Shown piece after piece: positions 5,297 through 64,000 of a stretch of DNA of 64,000 nucleotides. Both the position numbers and the translations under genes were made by a program. Source of the stretch: Scenedesmus sp. PABB004. Its lineage: Eukaryota. Within the stretch, counting starts at the first letter, position 1. The number at the start of each line of letters is the position of its first letter. The notes beneath the pieces are model-generated. The model saw only the letters and a list, made by a program, of their open reading frames with translations. It was not told the DNA's origin and did no database searches. The stretch covers positions 186,001-250,000 of the forward strand of contig JABVCE010000031.1 of the NCBI GenBank assembly GCA_014905635.1, written 5' to 3'.

Positions 5297-5359
5297 AGCA
5301 GCAGCAGCAGCTGGTGCACAAGCCGTGGCCGCGCCGCCAGCAGAAACCGCCCGTGCCGC

Positions 5360-5408
<49 letters not shown>

Positions 5409-10430: not shown

Positions 10431-10876
10431 CGTCTCTCGCTCGGCGGCTCGCTCCGGGGGGCGCCTAGGGCTGCCGCGGCTAGGTGCGGCGGCAAAACCG
10501 TTTCTTCAGACCAGTTTGGCGCGATGGAGGCACGCGCGGCGCGGGGGCGCGCTGCAGCGGAGCTGGACAGCTCGGTCCGCACATCCATCGGCTGCCGAGG
10601 ACGACGACCGCCCGGCGACCGCCGCGCCGCCATGGCGCGACGCCGCCAGCGGTGGCGCGGAAGCCGAAGGAGGCCTCGCAAGCGACGGCGGCGGCTGCGG
10701 CCTCTGCGCTCGGCCGCCGCCGCGGGTGACGCCAGCCCCCCGGGCTGGAAGGGCCGCTGCCGCCACGTCGCGCCTGCCGTCGCGTCTGGCCCGCGTGAGA
10801 CCGCAGGTTGCCTCGCGGCCGTCCCGCCGGTGCGCCGCACGCCGCAGGACGTCGCCGCGCGGCGCGCGCCGCGCAG

Positions 10877-11482
10877 TCAGCGCCCCCCGGCGGCGCCGCT
10901 GCCCTGCGCCGCGAGCCGCCGCTCCAGCGCCTCAAACGCGTCCAGCCCGGCGGCCATCGCGCGCGCCTGCGCGACTGCCGCGACGTCCAGGACCGGCACG
11001 CCCGGGTGGTGCGCGGCCATGTGCTCGACGTACGCCTGCAGCTTGTCACGGTACAGGTCCCACACGCACACCTGCGCGCAGCGGCCCGTGGCGCGGCGTG
11101 CCAACCCGCCGGCCGCCGCCCGCGCCGGCAGCGCGCCCCGTGCCGCGCCGCACCTTGCAGCCGCGCCCGCAGCACTCGCCGGGCGCCGGCTCGCGCGGCG
11201 GCGCGGGCGGCGCGGCGACGGGCTGGGCGGCGGCGGGCGGGGGAGCGGCGCTGCCGGCGGGCGCGGCAGCAGCGGGCGGGCCGCGGCGGGCGGCGGCGTG
11301 AGCGGCGCCGCAAATCGAGCGCGCGATGAGCGCGATGAGCGCAGGGAGCGGCGAGGCTCGTGCTTCCGGCCGCCGCTTCGACAGCGTTCGAGCGAGCGAG
11401 CAGCGCGCGATGCGGCGGCGCTGCTCTGCTGTCCTGCCGCGCGGCGGCCGCTCCTGCTGCCCCGCTCACCCGGCTTCAACAT
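10877..11482 (-). CDS. Oxidoreductase-like domain protein (OXLD1 / Oxidored-like, PF09791 type)
   Basis: Splicing across an intron at about 11072-11153 gives PPREPAPGECCGRGCK|VCVWDLYRDKLQAY, matching the PxxCCGxGCxxCVWxxY signature. The start (ATG 11482 plus intron) is uncertain. Confidence 0.75.
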   Translation of the reverse strand: MLKPGERGSRSGRRAAGQQSSAAASRAARSLERCRSGGRKHEPRRSLRSSRSSRARFAAPLTPPPAAARPLLPRPPAAPLPRPPPPSPSPRRPRRRASRRPASAAGAAARCGAARGALPARAAAGGLARRATGRCAQVCVWDLYRDKLQAYVEHMAAHHPGVPVLDVAAVAQARAMAAGLDAFEALERRLAAQGSGAAGGR

Positions 11483-55900: not shown

Positions 55901-57861
55901 CCCGCCCGCCTTCCCCTTTGCCTACGTGACGATGCCGGGGAGCGTGCTCGAGGAGTGCCGCCCCGCCGGCGAGCCCGCGTGCGCGGCGGCGCCGCCATTC
56001 AACGTCCCCGCGCGGGTGCGCGGCGCGCGCGGGGGCGGGGCGCGGCGCGCGGTGCGGCGCGCGGCGCGCGCGTCCCCCCCGCCCTGCTCGCCGACGCCGC
56101 GGCGCCGCGCCCGCGCCCGCTCCGACAGGACAACGGCGCCCTGAGCGGCTGCGTGACCGCCACGACCGCGTGCCCCTCCAGCTTCCCGGTCGAGGTGGCG
56201 CCTGCGCTCGGCGCGCAGGTGCAGGAGTGCGCGAGCGCGCGCTCGCCCTGCGCCGCCACGGTCTGGCCGTTCTCGCTCATTGCCGGCAGCAGCCTGCAGG
56301 CGTGCGTGCAGCCGCTGCTGGGCACCGACACCTGCAGCGTCCCAGGCACGGCGCGCGGCGCTCACGCGCGCGCCGCCCGCGCGCCGAGGCTCGGGCCGCT
56401 CACGGCCGCGCCGGGCCGCTCCGTGCCGCAGGCTACGCCGGCCCCGAGATCTTCAGCCCCTCTGGCATGAGCCTGGAGGGCTGCATCGCGACCGGCCAAA
56501 CCGCCTGCCCGCCCAGCCACCCCGTCGCGTTTCTGGACGCCGGCGCGCTGCTGTCCTGCCGCGCGAGCGTCGCGGGGGCCTGCCCCGTGGCCGGCGCGCC
56601 GAGCGGCGCGTTCCCCGTGCCCGTGCTCGGCGTTGGCGGCGTCATCGCGGGCTGCATGACCGCTGGTAGCAACTGCCCCGTCGGCCCGACGACGCCGCTC
56701 GCCGAGAACGCGACGTCGCCCGTGCTGTCGTGCTGGCTGCCGCCGCTCGCCAACTCGTGCGACGGCGCGCCCGGCGGCTTCTCGTTCGGGCTGTACGACC
56801 GCGACGGCAGCGGCCAGGTGCGCGCGGCGCGTGAGACCCCCCTCGGCCGAGGGGCCGCCCCCACGACCCTGCGCGGCCGCTCACCCACCCCGCGCCGGCC
56901 GCCCGCGCGGTCTCGGCCAGGCGCGCCTGCTGCGGTGCGTGCTGCCCGTGCCCGGCGCGTCCAATTGCAGCCAGGCGGCGTATTCGAATTTCAACCGCGA
57001 GCTGAAGTCGGCGGACGGGCTGAGCCTGCAGGGCTGCTTCCGCGGCACCGCGTGCCCGCTCAGCTCCCTGCCCAAGGCGTGGACCTTCTCGCTTTTCGGC
57101 CGCAACAACGCCACCGACGCGACGGCCTCGCTCGTCGAGGTGCGCGCCGCGCGCGCGGCGCCCGGCGGCGGCGCAGCCCGGCGGGCCCCGACCGCCGCGC
57201 CGCGCAGAGCGCGCGCGCGCGCGCGCACGCGCCCAGCGCGCGCACCCAGCCGCCGCCGCCGCCGCCGCCGGCGGCGCCGCAGTGCCGCGAGGGCGTGTCG
57301 CTGACGGTGGGCCAGGGCTGCGCCGCGCTGGCCAACACGAGCGGCTACGACGTCGAGCTCTCCGCGGCGGGCGGCTTTGCCAACCCGCTGCTCGGCTGCA
57401 GCCGCACCAACGCGCGCTGCCCCGAGTCGGCGCCCAAGTTCATGCTCTCCGCCTCCGGCGGCCTCCTCAGCTGCCAGGGCAGCCTGCTGAGCGGCGACTG
57501 CCCGCTCACCGCGCCGCTGCCCATCTACAGTGGCTTCGCGGCGTCCGGCGGCGGCTACGCGCAGGAGCGCCCGCTCGGCTGCGTCGCGGCGGGCGCGACG
57601 CGCTGCCCGAGCAGCGCGCTGTGGGGGCCCTTCACCTTCCCGGTGGTGAGCGTCGCGCCCGGCCCCACCGCGCTCCTCGCGTGCCTGCGCCCCGGCGCCG
57701 CCGACGCGGGCGGCTGCGCGGTTCCAGACTTCCCGACGCCCGCGCGCGCAAACGCCACTGCCGGCGGCCCGATCGCGGCCTGCACCAACGGCGGCGAGGC
57801 CGAGTGCACGGCGTGGTGGGCGGGCTACAGCGGGGAGCCGTCCTGGTTCTGCAAGGCGTGA
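52978..57861 (+). CDS. Large secreted cell-wall-type protein: signal peptide, N domain, (SP)n shaft and many ~25-aa two-Cys repeats
   Basis: MRRPVAAVLAAALCLAALARA; SP repeat at about 53938-54068; about 12 exons with recurring CPxxFPV-x(4-9)-GxLxxC units; stop TGA at 57861. Confidence 0.8.
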
Positions 57862-58901
57862 GGCGACGCTGGCAGAGGGCTGGCGCTGGGGGCTCGCAGC
57901 GAGCGAGCAACGACGGCGCGCCGCGCGAGCGGCGACAAACGACTGCACGAACGACTACCGGCTGCGCCCGCTGGTGCGCGCGTGGACGAAACGAAAGTGA
58001 TTGCGCGTGTGCGCTGCGTGTGTCGGGGCCGCCGACCTGCAAAGCGGTCGGCCCGGCGGCGTGGGGGGGGCCTCGGGCTCATTTCATGGCGCCGGCGCGC
58101 GCCGACGCTGGCGCGTGCGCGGCGCCGCCTTCATGGTTGGGGGGGGGGGGGGGTGACCACGAGACGAACTCACTCGCTGCAGCGCGGCCCCACGGCGCTC
58201 CGCCATGGGGCGGGCGCGCGACCTGACGCGCGGCGTGCGTGTGGGCTGCTGGGGTGGGAACCTTGTCGATGCGCCGGCGACGGCCGTCCGTGCGGACCTG
58301 CGGCGCGCCGCTGATGGTTTGCGTGCACGCGCGGCTTCCTCGGCCGCTGCGTGAGAAGATGAAAAGGAGCGGCACACGGCTTCAACCACGAGGGGGATGC
58401 ATCGCAGCACACCGCAACGCAACCACCAATCACCGCAACAACCACCAATCACCACCGCTGACGTAACCGGGTGCGGTGCACCGCATCACTGCAGTGCCGA
58501 GTCCTGACTCTGCACCGCGCAGCGCGCGTGCGGGCCCTGCATGGTGGGGCTGCGTGCGCGGCGCATGGTCGGAGAGGGGGCCGAGCCGGGCCGGCGCGGC
58601 GGGGCAGAGAGGGCGGGTGACCGTCGCCACGGCTTCGCTCAACGGCGGCCGCCGTTCCGCGGACTGGGGCCAGGTTCAGCCTGACGTGCATCTCCCCCGC
58701 GCCGCTGCTCACGCCACCCACCGCCGCCGCCGCGGCAGCTACCTTGCCCGCCGCTCAGCAGCCCGCCGCCGAGCGCGGAGGCCGCCGCCGCCGCCGGACC
58801 GGCCCTGATCACTGCCCGCGGCTTCGCGCCACCGGTGGCGACGTCGCACCACGCCGGCGCGGCGGCGCGCGGGGCACGGGACACACTGCAGGGCGGCGCA
58901 G

Positions 58902-59201
58902 CCCGTCACGATGGCCCAGCTCTGCAGCGCCGTCGGCGGCGTGCTCGGCCGGCCGAGCTGGCTGCCGGTGCCGGACTTATCCATCACCACGCTGCTGGGC
59001 GAGGGCGCGCAGGCGCGCAGGTGTGCCGCGCCGCGTAGCGCAGCGCTGCACGCCGCCGCGCGCCCGCCCGCGCGCTCAGCCTCCGCCGCGCCGCAGGTGG
59101 TGCTGGAGGGCCAGAAGGTGCTGCCCACGCGCGCCCAGGCGGCGGGCTTTGCCTTCAAGTACACCGAGCTGCCGGACGCGCTGCGCAGCATCCTCAAGTG
59201 A
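58902..59201 (+). pseudogene. Orphan C-terminal fragment (DUF1731) of a TIGR01777/SDR39U1/GC1-type epimerase
   Basis: PVTMAQLCSAVGGVLGRPSWLPVPD..LLGEGAQ|VVLEGQKVLP..AAGFAFKYTELPDALRSILK*, intron 59013-59096. No upstream Rossmann-fold exons found between 57861 and 58900. Confidence 0.7.
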
Positions 59202-59691: not shown

Positions 59692-59698
59692 TATAAAT
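59692..59698 (+). promoter_or_regulatory. TATA box for the repeat-array gene
   Basis: TATAAAT in an otherwise very GC-rich context, 180 nt upstream of ATG 59872. A similar TTTATA lies at about 52911, before ATG 52978. Confidence 0.6.
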
Positions 59699-59871: not shown

Positions 59872-62800
59872 ATGGCACACAAGTCGTTCTACGGCTACTC
59901 GGCCAAGCAGACGGGCGCCGCGCGCGCCGGGGCGGCCACGGTGAGGCCGCGAGCTCCGGGGCTGCCGCCCGGGCAGCTGGGCCGCTGCCGCGCCGCGCGC
60001 GCCCGGACAGGGGTGTGTCTGGTCGGCCGCCGTCCGGGGCGCGCGCGCCCGACACCGCCGCGCGGCGCCAGCGCGCGGCCGGGCGCCGGCATGGCGCCCC
60101 ACGCCCACGCCGCTGCCTGCGCCGCGCCGCTGCCCCAGGGCCGCCACGCCATGCCCCAGGCGACCAAGACGGTGGCGCCGGCGTCCGTCGCGCGCGCCGA
60201 CGCGGCCAGCGAGGTGCGGCGCGAGCGGGACGCCCCGCGCCGCGAGAGGGCCGCCGCTGCGCTGCAGCCCCCTCCGCGCCCCCCTGCCGACGCCGGCTGC
60301 CGCCGCGCGCAGGCCACGGCCATGACCAGCGCGCCGGCGCCGGTCGCGCCCCCCGCCGCCAAGAGGAGCTACCTCGAGGCGGTCCTGGGGGTGCGCGCGT
60401 GCTGCCGCTGCGCGCGTGCGCGCCCGACAGCCCCCCCCCTCTGCGCTCGGCTCCGCTGCTCACGGCGGCTGCCGCCGCCGTGGCGCAGGCCGCGCCCAAG
60501 ACCGAGGTGGCGCAGGCCGCGCCCAAGGTGAGCGAGGCGGTGCCCTGCGCGGTGCGGCGTGAGAGTGGCGTGGGACGCCAGCCTGGCGGACCGCGTCCGG
60601 CCTGATGCCCCCTCCGCACACGGCTGCTGCTGACGCCACCTATCGCCGCCGCTGCGCGCAGCCCCTGCCCAAGCCCGCCGCGGCGGTGCTCAAGGCGGCG
60701 CCGGCGCCCACGGCCGCGCCGGCGCCCCAGGCCGCGCCCAAGGCCGCGCCCAAGGCCGCGCCCACGGCCGCGCCCATGCCCAAGGCCGCGCCCAAGGCCG
60801 CGCCGGCGCCCCAGGCCGCGCCCAAGGCCGCGCCCGCGCCCAAGGCCGCGCCCACGGCCGCGCCCGTGCCCAAGGCCGCGCCCAAGGCCGCGGCGGCGCC
60901 CCAGGCCGCGCCCAAGGCCGCGCCCGCGCCCAAGGCCGCGCCCAAGGCCGCGCCCGCGCCCAAGGCCACGCCCCAGAAGACCTACGCGGCGGCGCTCAAG
61001 GTGTGGCGCAGGCGCTCCACACCGCGCGCTGCCGCTGCACAGCACGCGGCGGCCCTCCTCACGCACCACCGCTGCCGGCGCACGCAGGGCTCGGCCATGC
61101 CCGCCGCGGCGGCGCCCAAGACCGCGCCGGTGGCCGACAACGACAAGGCCTGCGAGGTGCGGCGCGAGCGGGGCGTCCAAGCCGCTGCGCGGCCAGGCAG
61201 CCCCCTCTGCCGCGGTGCTGCCGCAGCTTTCGGCGCCCGCGCCTGCTCGCCCACGCGTCCGCTGCCGTGCGCGCCGTGCAGGCTGCCGACGCGGCGCGCG
61301 TGGCGGCGGAGGCGGCGGCCGCGCTCAAGGCGCGCGTCGTCGCGGCCGAGGCCGAGGCGGCGGAGGCCAAGGAGCACGCGGCGAGCGAGGTGCGGCGCGC
61401 TGCGCGCTGCGCGCACGCGCTGGGCGGGGCCTGCTGCGGCGCGGGCCCCACTTTCGGCGCCCGCGCCTGCTCGCCCACGCGTCCGCTGCCGTGCGCCCTG
61501 CAGGCCGCCAACGCGGCGCGCGTGGCGGCGGAGGAGGCGGCCGCGCTCAAGGCGCGCGTCGTCGCGGCCGAGGCCGAGGCGGCGGAGGCCAAGGAGCACG
61601 CGGCGAGCGAGGTGCGGCGCGCTGCGCGCTGCGCGCACGCGCTGGGCGGGGCCTGCTGCGGCGCGGGCCCCGCTTTTGGCGCCCGCGCCTGCTCGCCCAC
61701 GCGTCCGCTGCCGTGCGCCCTGCAGGCCGCCAACGCGGCGCGCGTGGCGGCGGAGGAGGCGGCCGCGCTCAAGGCGCGCGTCGTCGCGGCCGAGGCCGAG
61801 GCGGCGGAGGCCAAGGAGCACGCGGCGAGCGAGGTGCGGCGCGCTGCGCGCTGCGCGCACGCGCTGGGCGGGGCCTGCTGCGGCGCGGGCCCCGCTTTTG
61901 GCGCCCGCGCCTGCTCGCCCACGCGTCCGCTGCCGTGCGCCCTGCAGGCCGCCAACGCGGCGCGCGTGGCGGCGGAGGAGGCGGCCGCGCTCAAGGCGCG
62001 CGTCGTCGCGGCCGAGGCCGAGGCGGCGGAGGCCAAGGAGCACGCGGCGAGCGAGGTGCGGCGCGCTGCGCGCTGCGCGCACGCGCTGGGCGGGGCCTGC
62101 TGCGGCGCGGGCCCCACTTTCGGCGCCCGCGCCTGCTCGCCCACGCGTCCGCTGCCGTGCGCGCCCTGCAGGCCGCCAACGCGGCGCGCGTGGCGGCGGA
62201 GGAGGCGGCCGCGCTCAAGGCGCGCGTCGTCGCGGCCGAGGCCGAGGCGGCGGAGGCCAAGGAGCACGCGGCGAGCGAGGTGCGGCGCGCTGCGCGCTGC
62301 GCGCACGCGCTGGGCGGGGCCTGCTGCGGCGCGGGCCCCGCTTTTGGCGCCCGCGCCTGCTCGCCCACGCGTCCGCTGCCGTGCGCCCTGCAGGCCGCCA
62401 ACGCGGCGCGCGTGGCGGCGGAGGAGGCGGCCGCGCTCAAGGCGCGCGTCGTCGCGGCCGAGGCCGAGGCGGCGGAGGCCAAGGAGCACGCGGCGAGCGA
62501 GGTGCGGCGCGCTGCGCGCTGCGCGCACGCGCTGGGCGGGGCCTGCTGCGGCGCGGGCCCCGCTTTTGGCGCCCGCGCCTGCTCGCCCACGCGTCCGCTG
62601 CCGTGCGCCCTGCAGGCCGCCAACGCGGCGCGCGTGGCGGCGGAGGAGGCGGCCGCGCTCAAGGCGCGCGTCGTCGCGGCCGAGGCCGAGGCGGCGGAGG
62701 CCAAGGAGCACGCGGCGAGCGAGGTGCGGCGCGCTGCGCGCTGCGCGCACGCGCTGGGCGGGGCCTGCTGCGGCGCGGGCCCCACTTTCGGCGCCCGCGC

Positions 62801-64000
62801 CTGCTCGCCCACGCGTCCGCTGCCGTGCGCGCCCTGCAGGCCGCCAACGCGGCGCGCGTGGCGGCGGAGGAGGCGGCCGCGCTCAAGGCGCGCGTCGTCG
62901 CGGCCGAGGCCGAGGCGGCGGAGGCCAAGGAGCACGCGGCGAGCGAGGTGCGGCGCGCTGCGCGCTGCGCGCACGCGCTGGGCGGGGCCTGCTGCGGCGC
63001 GGGCCCCGCTTTTGGCGCCCGCGCCTGCTCGCCCACGCGTCCGCTGCCGTGCGCCCTGCAGGCCGCCAACGCGGCGCGCGTGGCGGCGGAGGAGGCGGCC
63101 GCGCTCAAGGCGCGCGTCGTCGCGGCCGAGGCCGAGGCGGCGGAGGCCAAGGAGCACGCGGCGAGCGAGGTGCGGCGCGCTGCGCGCTGCGCGCACGCGC
63201 TGGGCGGGGCCTGCTGCGGCGCGGGCCCCGCTTTTGGCGCCCGCGCCTGCTCGCCCACGCGTCCGCTGCCGTGCGCCCTGCAGGCCGCCAACGCGGCGCG
63301 CGTGGCGGCGGAGGAGGCGGCCGCGCTCAAGGCGCGCGTCGTCGCGGCCGAGGCCGAGGCGGCGGAGGCCAAGGAGCACGCGGCGAGCGAGGTGCGGCGC
63401 GCTGCGCGCTGCGCGCACGCGCTGGGCGGGGCCTGCTGCGGCGCGGGCCCCGCTTTTGGCGCCCGCGCCTGCTCGCCCACGCGTCCGCTGCCGTGCGCGC
63501 CCTGCAGGCCGCCAACGCGGCGCGCGTGGCGGCGGAGGAGGCGGCCGCGCTCAAGGCGCGCGTCGTCGCGGCCGAGGCCGAGGCGGCGGAGGCCAAGGAG
63601 CACGCGGCGAGCGAGGTGCGGCGCGCTGCGCGCTGCGCGCACGCGCTGGGCGGGGCCTGCTGCGGCGCGGGCCCCGCTTTTGGCGCCCGCGCCTGCTCGC
63701 CCACGCGTCCGCTGCCGTGCGCCCTGCAGGCCGCCAACGCGGCGCGCGTGGCGGAGGCGGCGGCCGCGCTCAAGGCGCGCGTCGTCGCGGCCGAGGCCGA
63801 GGCGGCGGAGGCCAAGGAGCACGCGGCGAGCGAGGTGCGGCGCGCTGCGCGCTGCGCGCACGCGCTGGGCGGGGCCTGCTGCGGCGCGGGCCCCGCTTTT
63901 GGCGCCCGCACCTGCTCGCCCACGCGTCCGCTGCCGTGCGCCCTGCAGGCCGCCGACGCGGCGCGCGTGGCGGCGGAGCAGGCGGCCGCGCTCAAGGCGC
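59872..64000 (+). CDS. Ala/Pro/Lys-rich protein followed by tandem 36-aa helical repeats, each encoded by its own exon; runs off the window
   Basis: MAHKSFYGYSAK..|ATKTVAP..SE|..KRSYLEAVLG|..|(AAPK/APK)n..KTYAAALK|..KACE| then at least 13 phase-0 exons AANAARVAAEEAAALKARVVAAEAEAAEAKEHAASE flanked by CAG/GTGCGG. Confidence 0.8.
61229..64000. repeat. Tandem array of 222/224-bp exon+intron units with 668-bp higher-order periodicity
   Basis: Exon starts at 61282, 61504, 61726, 61948, 62172, 62394, 62616, 62840, 63062, 63284, 63508, 63730 and 63949. Confidence 0.95.

Follow-up and report, generated by a model that had tools for sequence, protein, structure and literature searches.

Gene A, at the 3' end of a 64,000-nucleotide stretch of the genome of Scenedesmus sp. 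PABB004, is quite probably a protein-coding nuclear gene of a young four-member family in which tandem arrays of exon-intron units evolve in concert. The stretch (hereafter the window) corresponds to C26:186001-250000, where C26 is contig JABVCE010000031.1 (341 kb, 79% GC) of assembly GCA_014905635.1 (40 Mb, 80 contigs); coordinates without a contig or locus prefix are those of the window. An earlier note on this DNA, made from its letters, had proposed recent unequal crossover or concerted evolution. The proposal was supported: the units cluster by gene, show all four combinations of markers, and number from 4 to 52 across the paralogs.

Structure of gene A and its array

Gene A lies on the plus strand and opens with a basic, Ala/Pro-rich head encoded by exons 1-4 (59872-59940, 60139-60213, 60313-60390 and 60489-60527; GT-AG introns, phase 0), which are conserved in the four paralogs. 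Exon 5 (60662-61000) contains an exonic Ala-Pro-Lys minisatellite, and exon 6 (61088-61156) is missing from paralog D. The next intron (61157-61281) forms the 5' junction of the array, with a 5' half of its own and a 3' half that it shares with the unit intron. It is followed by 12 complete units (61282-63948), each comprising an exon for a 36-amino-acid (aa) Ala/Glu-rich repeat and a GT-AG intron. The 204-nt terminal exon T1 starts at 63949 and ends past the window, at window-equivalent 64152 (L016:4949-5152), and the last exon, with the stop codon, lies at window-equivalent 64247-64618 (L016:5247-5618). The resulting model encodes 845 aa in 20 exons without internal stops, with every exon in phase 0 and 19/19 introns of the GT-AG type. 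A TATA-box-like hexamer is located at 59692-59697, 180 nt 5' of the ATG. TATAAA occurs six times in the 341 kb of the contig, and four of these occurrences (window 59692; C26:62161, 133306 and 153105) sit 178-180 nt before the four paralog ATGs; they were inherited through duplication and hence are not four independent cases.

The 13 acceptor-type starts listed in the earlier note (61282, 61504, 61726, 61948, 62172, 62394, 62616, 62840, 63062, 63284, 63508, 63730 and 63949) and their spacing (222, 222, 222, 224, 222, 222, 224, 222, 222, 224, 222, 219) were reproduced exactly. Its count of at least 13 units was too high, however: the thirteenth start opens T1, which resembles the repeat unit over only about 17 codons before leaving it, so that the array holds 12 complete units and stops at the window end. 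The unit lengths agreed with those described, and by its sequence each unit reads as a phase-0 exon (108 nt in 11 units, 105 nt in exon 12) plus an intron (114 nt in 9 of the 12, 116 nt in 3) of the form GTGCGG...TGCAG. In line with its statement that length changes preserve the frame, the introns measured 114 or 116 nt and the one shorter exon 105 nt. Tandem Repeats Finder (TRF) scored the array at 5331-5407 with 98-99% matches, far above expectation. Exons and introns had been described as equally uniform; both are near-uniform, but the exons slightly more so (mean pairwise difference 0.59% vs 0.86%), 10 of the 12 exons being identical. Private differences were confined to units 1 and 12 (6 columns in 2667 bases), in keeping with the statement that the edge units diverge most.

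An exact 668-bp period extends over 61493-63451 (about 2.9 periods), as defined by the self-match run and the lag-3 test. The longest exact self-match within the array was 1291 bp at offset 668 vs 448 bp at offset 222, and the permutation test on the units was significant at lag 3 (p = 0.005) and over all lags (p = 0.04). These results agree with the 668-bp trimer proposed earlier, as does the intron variant CCCCACTTTC, which recurs at each third unit and was found in introns 1, 4 and 7 only. The period is marked by two linked single-nucleotide polymorphisms (SNPs) and one 2-nt indel. Both marks occur in introns 4 and 7, the SNPs alone in intron 1 and the indel alone in intron 10; within a trimer, one monomer stands apart by 2 SNPs and the 2-nt indel from the other two, which match each other exactly. 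To call this a satellite-like higher-order structure was an overstatement, since the monomers share about 99% of their sequence and, over all lags, no period reached significance in the 52-unit array of paralog D (p = 0.12). A seven-unit 1621-bp period that TRF gave for D was not upheld in the same test (lag 7, p = 0.10; lag 14, p = 0.013). Gene A thus has the multi-unit period of a higher-order repeat, but neither diverged monomers nor many copies of the multimer. Because the period rests on two SNPs and a 2-nt indel only, we read it as the trace of recent exchanges three units out of register and not as a higher-order repeat of the satellite type.

Four paralogs and the turnover of their units

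Paralogs were sought genome-wide by DNA and protein searches, and all copies were found on C26: paralog B (C26:133131-129019, minus strand; 9 units, 745 aa), paralog C (C26:61988-59070, minus strand; 4 units, 538 aa) and paralog D (C26:153283-167172, plus strand; 52 units and a partial one, 2395 aa). On other contigs, 11 weak blast hits (L005-L015) were inspected, 31 weaker rows being left out, and none of the 11 holds a similar array. The models of all four genes are open, without internal stops and with all exons in phase 0. Exon 5 measures 339, 291 and 285 nt in A, B and C, respectively, while in D an in-frame fusion into a unit exon has removed exon 6 along with the end of exon 5. The repeat is 36 aa long in A and C and 39 aa in B and D, and the unit spans 222-231 bp across the family.

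Outside the arrays, divergence between genes is 3-8% in exons, introns and promoters (2-11% in the last intron). The commonest units differ between genes by 10-18% in exons and 9-15% in introns, apart from those of B and D (2.6% each), and within the arrays of A, C and D divergence is 0.6-1.2% in exons and 0.9-3.0% in introns. Units are therefore more alike within than between genes, as concerted evolution predicts, for A, for C, and for B and D taken as a pair. Among the flank sites, 22 favoured AC|BD, 8 AB|CD and 1 AD|BC, and the sister pairs A+C and B+D match the 36-aa and 39-aa unit types. A unit phylogeny, which the earlier note had suggested as a check, was run on 27 rows; its bootstrap is not fully settled, and it grouped the units of A (100/98) and of C (95/91) by gene, with B and D intermixed. 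The last B unit (35 aa) grouped beside A (97/94). B and D have one 231-bp unit in common without a single difference (4 copies in B, 1 in D), which points to a recent sharing of units. In D, 20 of 105 shared variable column pairs show all four combinations, as expected from recombination or conversion.

The make-up of the D array also bears on whether the unit numbers might be assembly artefacts, with repeats expanded or collapsed. The numbers do rest on one assembly, and 10 kb downstream lies a triple of 2829-bp copies with 99.8-99.9% identity. Yet the D array contains 15 distinct units among 52, its multi-site haplotypes recur in non-periodic order, and private differences number only 4 over its 12047 bases. 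At both ends of every array, diverged edge units adjoin unique flanking sequence, and related unit DNA is present in an independent metagenome. We consider an artefact very unlikely. In that freshwater metagenome (X2), a 156-bp contig spans the unit exon-intron border with 10 differences, and another of 288 bp runs across the last intron. Unit-type DNA exists outside the present assembly. Assignment of the X2 contig to paralog B was tried, but only 2 of 4 checked differences matched and it was left unassigned.

The array introns also share a short word about 30 nt before the acceptor. In gene A it is CCCAC in 13/13 introns (61157-63948), and at the same position CTCAC or CTCAT is found in 5/5 introns of C, 53/53 of D and 9/10 of B. 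Judged from the letters, CCCAC is a possible branch-site change that swept through the whole array of gene A.

Coding signal, selection and predicted protein

AT content by codon position was 0.11/0.42/0.00 in the unit exon of gene A and flat (0.11-0.22) in the unit intron. Across the genes, the unit exons gave 0.11-0.18, 0.38-0.42 and 0.00-0.03, and the unit introns 0.11-0.26, flat in every frame. All 104 introns of the four models are GT-AG, donors and acceptors alternate strictly, and none of the 77 unit exons (8850 bases) breaks the frame. As a control we used an epimerase gene on the same contig (380 aa), which has 7 introns of 81-196 nt, all ending in CAG, with GTGCGC donors in 5 and GC in 2. 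The five of its exons that were scanned follow one another in order on the ThyD profile, and three abut (144-193, 195-235, 236-272). The unit introns share the size and ends of the epimerase introns and hence fit the intron pattern of the contig. These results also bear on the possibility that the 114/116-nt segments are not introns and that the array is an unspliced coding minisatellite. The gene A array has no stops in any of the three plus-strand frames, its 114-nt segments preserve the frame, and the net frame is regained at T1. However, few stops are expected at 83% GC, with the 116-nt introns shifting the frame in between; variants of 116, 112 and 115 nt shift the frame within arrays; and the segments lack codon-position bias and begin and end with the donor and acceptor words of the control introns. 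An unspliced array is thus extremely improbable.

Public sequence data were also compared with the region. No splice joints were listed in the four contig sets aligned to L016:4725-10000, a segment that holds the last unit only. Six public runs, none recorded as RNA, carry a small share of the words of the region. Two data sets whose run type is not on record (X1 and X5) match the 3' flank of gene A exactly over 244 and 234 bp (0 differences); these matches are uninformative on expression because the 3' flank is the lowest-GC part (0.52-0.60). In all four paralogs the 3' flank (L016:5620-6020 in A) has a GC content of 0.53-0.57 over 400 nt and abounds in short words rich in CAT.

The C-terminal part is under purifying selection. 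For T1 and the last exon, pooled over the four genes, the ratio of non-synonymous to synonymous change (pN/pS) was 0.44 (25 synonymous, 32 non-synonymous; binomial p = 0.003). Outside the arrays, indels were multiples of three in 4/4 exonic vs 1/16 intronic cases (Fisher p = 0.001). We take the family to be probably functional, the frame and the C-terminal part being under constraint. A different account would have the members as decaying or near-neutral orphan genes, with arrays that are in effect satellites and a frame that survives through recency. It would suit the pN/pS of the head, the loss of exon 6 and the exon 5 end in D, the failure of single-exon or alignment queries to find a homolog, and unit copies so recent that few independent mutations test the frame (4 private differences in the 12047 bases of D). 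The C-terminal pN/pS and the contrast between in-frame exon indels and out-of-frame intron indels speak against it, as do the intactness of 4/4 copies, each with TATA box and all splice sites, and the in-frame nature of the D deletion. We regard neutral decay as quite unlikely.

The predicted protein consists of a head of 142-223 aa (17-19% Pro, net charge +16 to +21), a rod of 239-2157 aa (one Pro per rod, net charge -14 to -159) and a tail of 94-97 aa (net charge +6 to +8). AlphaFold2 modelled T1 as a single helix (pLDDT 93.5, 4-row alignment); for the last exon it gave a helix that a low-confidence linker joins to a second, short one (mean 57). Heptads were clear only at the rod end, with an a/d enrichment of 0.51, compared with 0.10 in the units of A and C and 0.36 in those of B; this weak signal in the units does not establish a coiled coil for the repeats. 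In the head, two words of the form Lys/Arg-Ser/Thr-Tyr-x3-4-Leu are conserved (60364-60390 and 60977-61000), one of which is retained in D, and the tail carries a conserved Trp followed by an Arg run (L016:5550-5580). These short motifs are candidate binding motifs on the strength of their conservation.

Homologs were searched for with single exons or their alignments as queries. The best matches in Pfam (E = 0.012) and NCBIfam (E = 0.008) were generic and below the cut-off. The sole match in 1.84 billion proteins (E = 7.5e-6) covered the heptad stretch only and was rejected as a relative, and the protein-atlas neighbours, the CDK5RAP2 and TACC coiled coils at 0.86, fell below the recognition threshold. 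The repeat may resemble LEA 11-mers and the head histone-H1-like tails, but Pfam gave no LEA or histone-H1-like match for either. From composition, we hold it about evenly balanced whether the protein is a self-associating, nucleic-acid-binding helical spacer between two basic ends.

Several observations weigh against a spliced, constrained gene family evolving in concert. The exon/intron structure is read from the sequence, as no spliced read or contig was seen for any intron, and the unspliced gene A array is itself stop-free on the plus strand and back in frame at T1. The head gave no sign of purifying selection (pN/pS 0.91, p = 0.84), and the value for the unit types was not significant (0.65, p = 0.24). 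Within the arrays, indels were multiples of three in 5/5 exonic vs 1/7 intronic cases, but four of the five exonic ones come from one unit of B; moreover, the in-frame-indel test overstates selection somewhat because codon runs slip by three bases naturally. The probability of the identical B/D unit at the flank divergence (p 3e-4 to 1e-6) is that of a single pair, yet many pairs were compared. The four-combination cases in A depend on the 2-nt indel, which is possibly recurrent by slippage. Finally, the heptad signal of the repeat is weak, with harmonics of the unit length as its strongest Fourier peaks, and no homolog in Pfam, NCBIfam, public proteins, viral contigs or metagenome contigs supports any function.

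With these points taken into account, concerted evolution of a coding family remains our preferred explanation, and we propose the following course for it. The unit would have been born when a segment extending from one phase-0 intron into the head of the terminal exon was duplicated internally, with the result that each added unit would bring its own splice sites and whole codons. Misaligned recombination or conversion would then expand, contract and homogenise the arrays, one or several units at a step and with each intron changing along with its exon, and recent three-unit steps could have left the 668-bp period in A. Local segmental duplications, ragged at their edges, may have spread the gene and produced the sister pairs A+C and B+D, and B and D would have exchanged units recently. 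The product would be a helical spacer of about 240-2160 residues (35-320 nm if fully helical) that links a basic disordered head to a heptad-bearing end and an Arg-rich tail, and most plausibly it would associate with itself and serve as a tether or scaffold for nucleic acid or some other polyanion. Selection would maintain the frame and the C-terminal part, with the rod length loosely constrained and changing largely through array instability.

Rod length might instead be selected in itself, as in a molecular ruler, with paralogs kept at differing lengths and/or exon skipping giving a ladder of lengths. The rods do span a ninefold range of length between near-identical ends, any exon skipping would keep the frame since all exons are in phase 0, and the CCCAC word in all 13 array introns of A could weaken the branch site. 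On the other hand, unstable arrays without selection would also yield a wide spread of copy numbers, and CCCAC is also found at -29 in 1 of the 7 control introns. We judge selection on length unlikely. The stronger version, for which we see a rather slim chance, would make the four genes a natural ruler ladder that holds a near-identical head and tail about 35, 66, 78 and 320 nm apart, with finer steps from exon skipping, perhaps favoured in A by the array-wide branch-site change. If this were true, the turnover of intron-containing repeats would directly and heritably set a physical distance inside an algal cell.

Genomic setting and known systems

The duplicated block that carries gene A has at its 5' edge an orphan 3' fragment of an epimerase gene (58893-59201, plus strand; the last 1.5 exons; TIGR01777/ThyD-like, DUF1731). 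The intact gene, of the plastid ThyD/TIGR01777 type and used above as the control, lies upstream of paralog B (L020:6806-8836, minus strand); two consecutive introns among its seven are GC-AG, and the exons around the first of these lie end to end in the profile. The 5' edges of the duplicated blocks differ between copies (window-equivalent 58893, 59319 and 59411), as do the 3' edges. Gene A is also flanked by pieces that resemble a locus at C26:196.6-197.3 kb (window 10610-11308), namely 58765-58875 (77%, 112 bp) and L016:6566-6981 (90%, 426 bp). The order of these pieces is swapped relative to the source, which could reflect a circular or tandem intermediate. As the edges of the block vary from copy to copy and include parts of neighbouring genes, the spread of the copies, as read from their ends, fits local segmental duplication and not a transposon with fixed ends.

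These edges bear directly on the idea that the gene is cargo or an open reading frame of a mobile or selfish element (a transposon, an endogenous virus or a driver). A young, homolog-free gene present in both orientations, with a fast-changing repeat and basic ends, would suit such an element, and basic ends occur in nucleic-acid-binding proteins of mobile elements. However, there are only 4 copies, all on one contig, their block edges differ and include pieces of host genes, and no relative was found in viral contigs. We also scanned 144 of 518 coding-like segments of C26 (the best two per 4.6-kb bin) against Pfam. Matches were obtained for 42 of the 144, to ordinary cellular families (e.g. 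presenilin, kinesin, RRP40, SRP54, COG7, CWC15 and kinases), and none of these 42 matched a transposase, reverse transcriptase, integrase or viral family. A mobile origin is therefore highly improbable.

Further features were observed in the surroundings. The 2829-bp unit mentioned above occurs in three tandem copies at C26:260550-269039 (L017:5550 to L018:4039) and holds, by eye, the 3' end of a kinase gene, a small intron-bearing LEA-like gene and a BTB-like gene; its scanned segments gave no Pfam match at 1e-4. The triple is either a very recent triplication or an assembly effect. Exonic-looking coding minisatellites with units that lack introns are present at C26:24145-24647 (75-bp unit, 6.7 copies) and C26:304539-304818 (75/108-bp units), and short TTTAGGG-type words occur on the contig; together with the short GC-rich introns and the plastid-type epimerase, these words point to a green alga. 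At 56130-57860 lies the 3' end of a multi-exon gene that by eye is rich in cysteines set at intervals and may encode a repeat protein of the cell wall or a secreted one; one segment of it was searched in Pfam and gave no match.

The arrays are a case of concerted evolution like those of Argiope MaSp2, LPA KIV-2 and NBPF, and the architecture is already known from spiders and primates. Like gene A and its relatives, the MaSp2 genes of Argiope are clustered paralogs of repeated exon-intron pairs whose introns are alike within a gene (97.6% on average) and divergent between genes, with intergenic conversion, and their authors held that skipping would alter length only (PMC9779670). The algal family differs in its unrelated protein, its 222-231-bp unit with a phase-0 intron, and its helical Ala/Glu repeat of intracellular appearance, and it has no alternating intron types. 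In human LPA, a coding variable number tandem repeat (VNTR) of kringle IV type 2 likewise includes introns in its unit, and 1 to about 40 units per allele set the protein size (PMC11462820). The LPA unit, however, is a 5.6-kb two-exon unit that encodes a folded domain and varies between alleles, whereas the algal variation is between paralogs in one assembly. NBPF, with its Olduvai repeats, shares the tandem exon-plus-intron units in paralogs on the same chromosome, the very different copy numbers and the three-unit period, but its monomers are about 18% apart and its trimers about 1.6%, in 7-19 trimers (PMC9584774), vs monomers about 99% alike and about 2.9 periods in gene A. The core-duplicon family NPIP resembles the algal one in that its copies are scattered over a single chromosome beside duplicated flanking pieces, undergo interlocus conversion and carry a coding VNTR through which open reading frame length varies several-fold; there, the VNTR lies within one exon and positive selection is reported (PMC12790995), in contrast to pN/pS values of at most 1 in the algal family.

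In a survey of animal repeat proteins, concerted evolution of repeats is the exception (PMC5100051). In Chlamydomonas, expansions and contractions of tandem repeats within genes are documented, and an array of exon-intron units is not described in the accessible portions of these papers (PMC9977147; 10.1101/2022.06.16.496473). A limited open-access full-text literature yielded no green-algal description of such arrays. The protein of the present family fits no known family. With four paralogs whose flanks are about 3-8% apart and whose unit numbers differ thirteen-fold, the family is a compact and completely assembled model for intron multiplication and for length change in repeat proteins. 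As the units are only 222-231 bp long, every array, from the 2.8 kb of A to the 12.4 kb of D, can be spanned by single long reads. Exchange rates, step sizes, conversion between paralogs and the skipping of identical exons could all be measured in one microbe.

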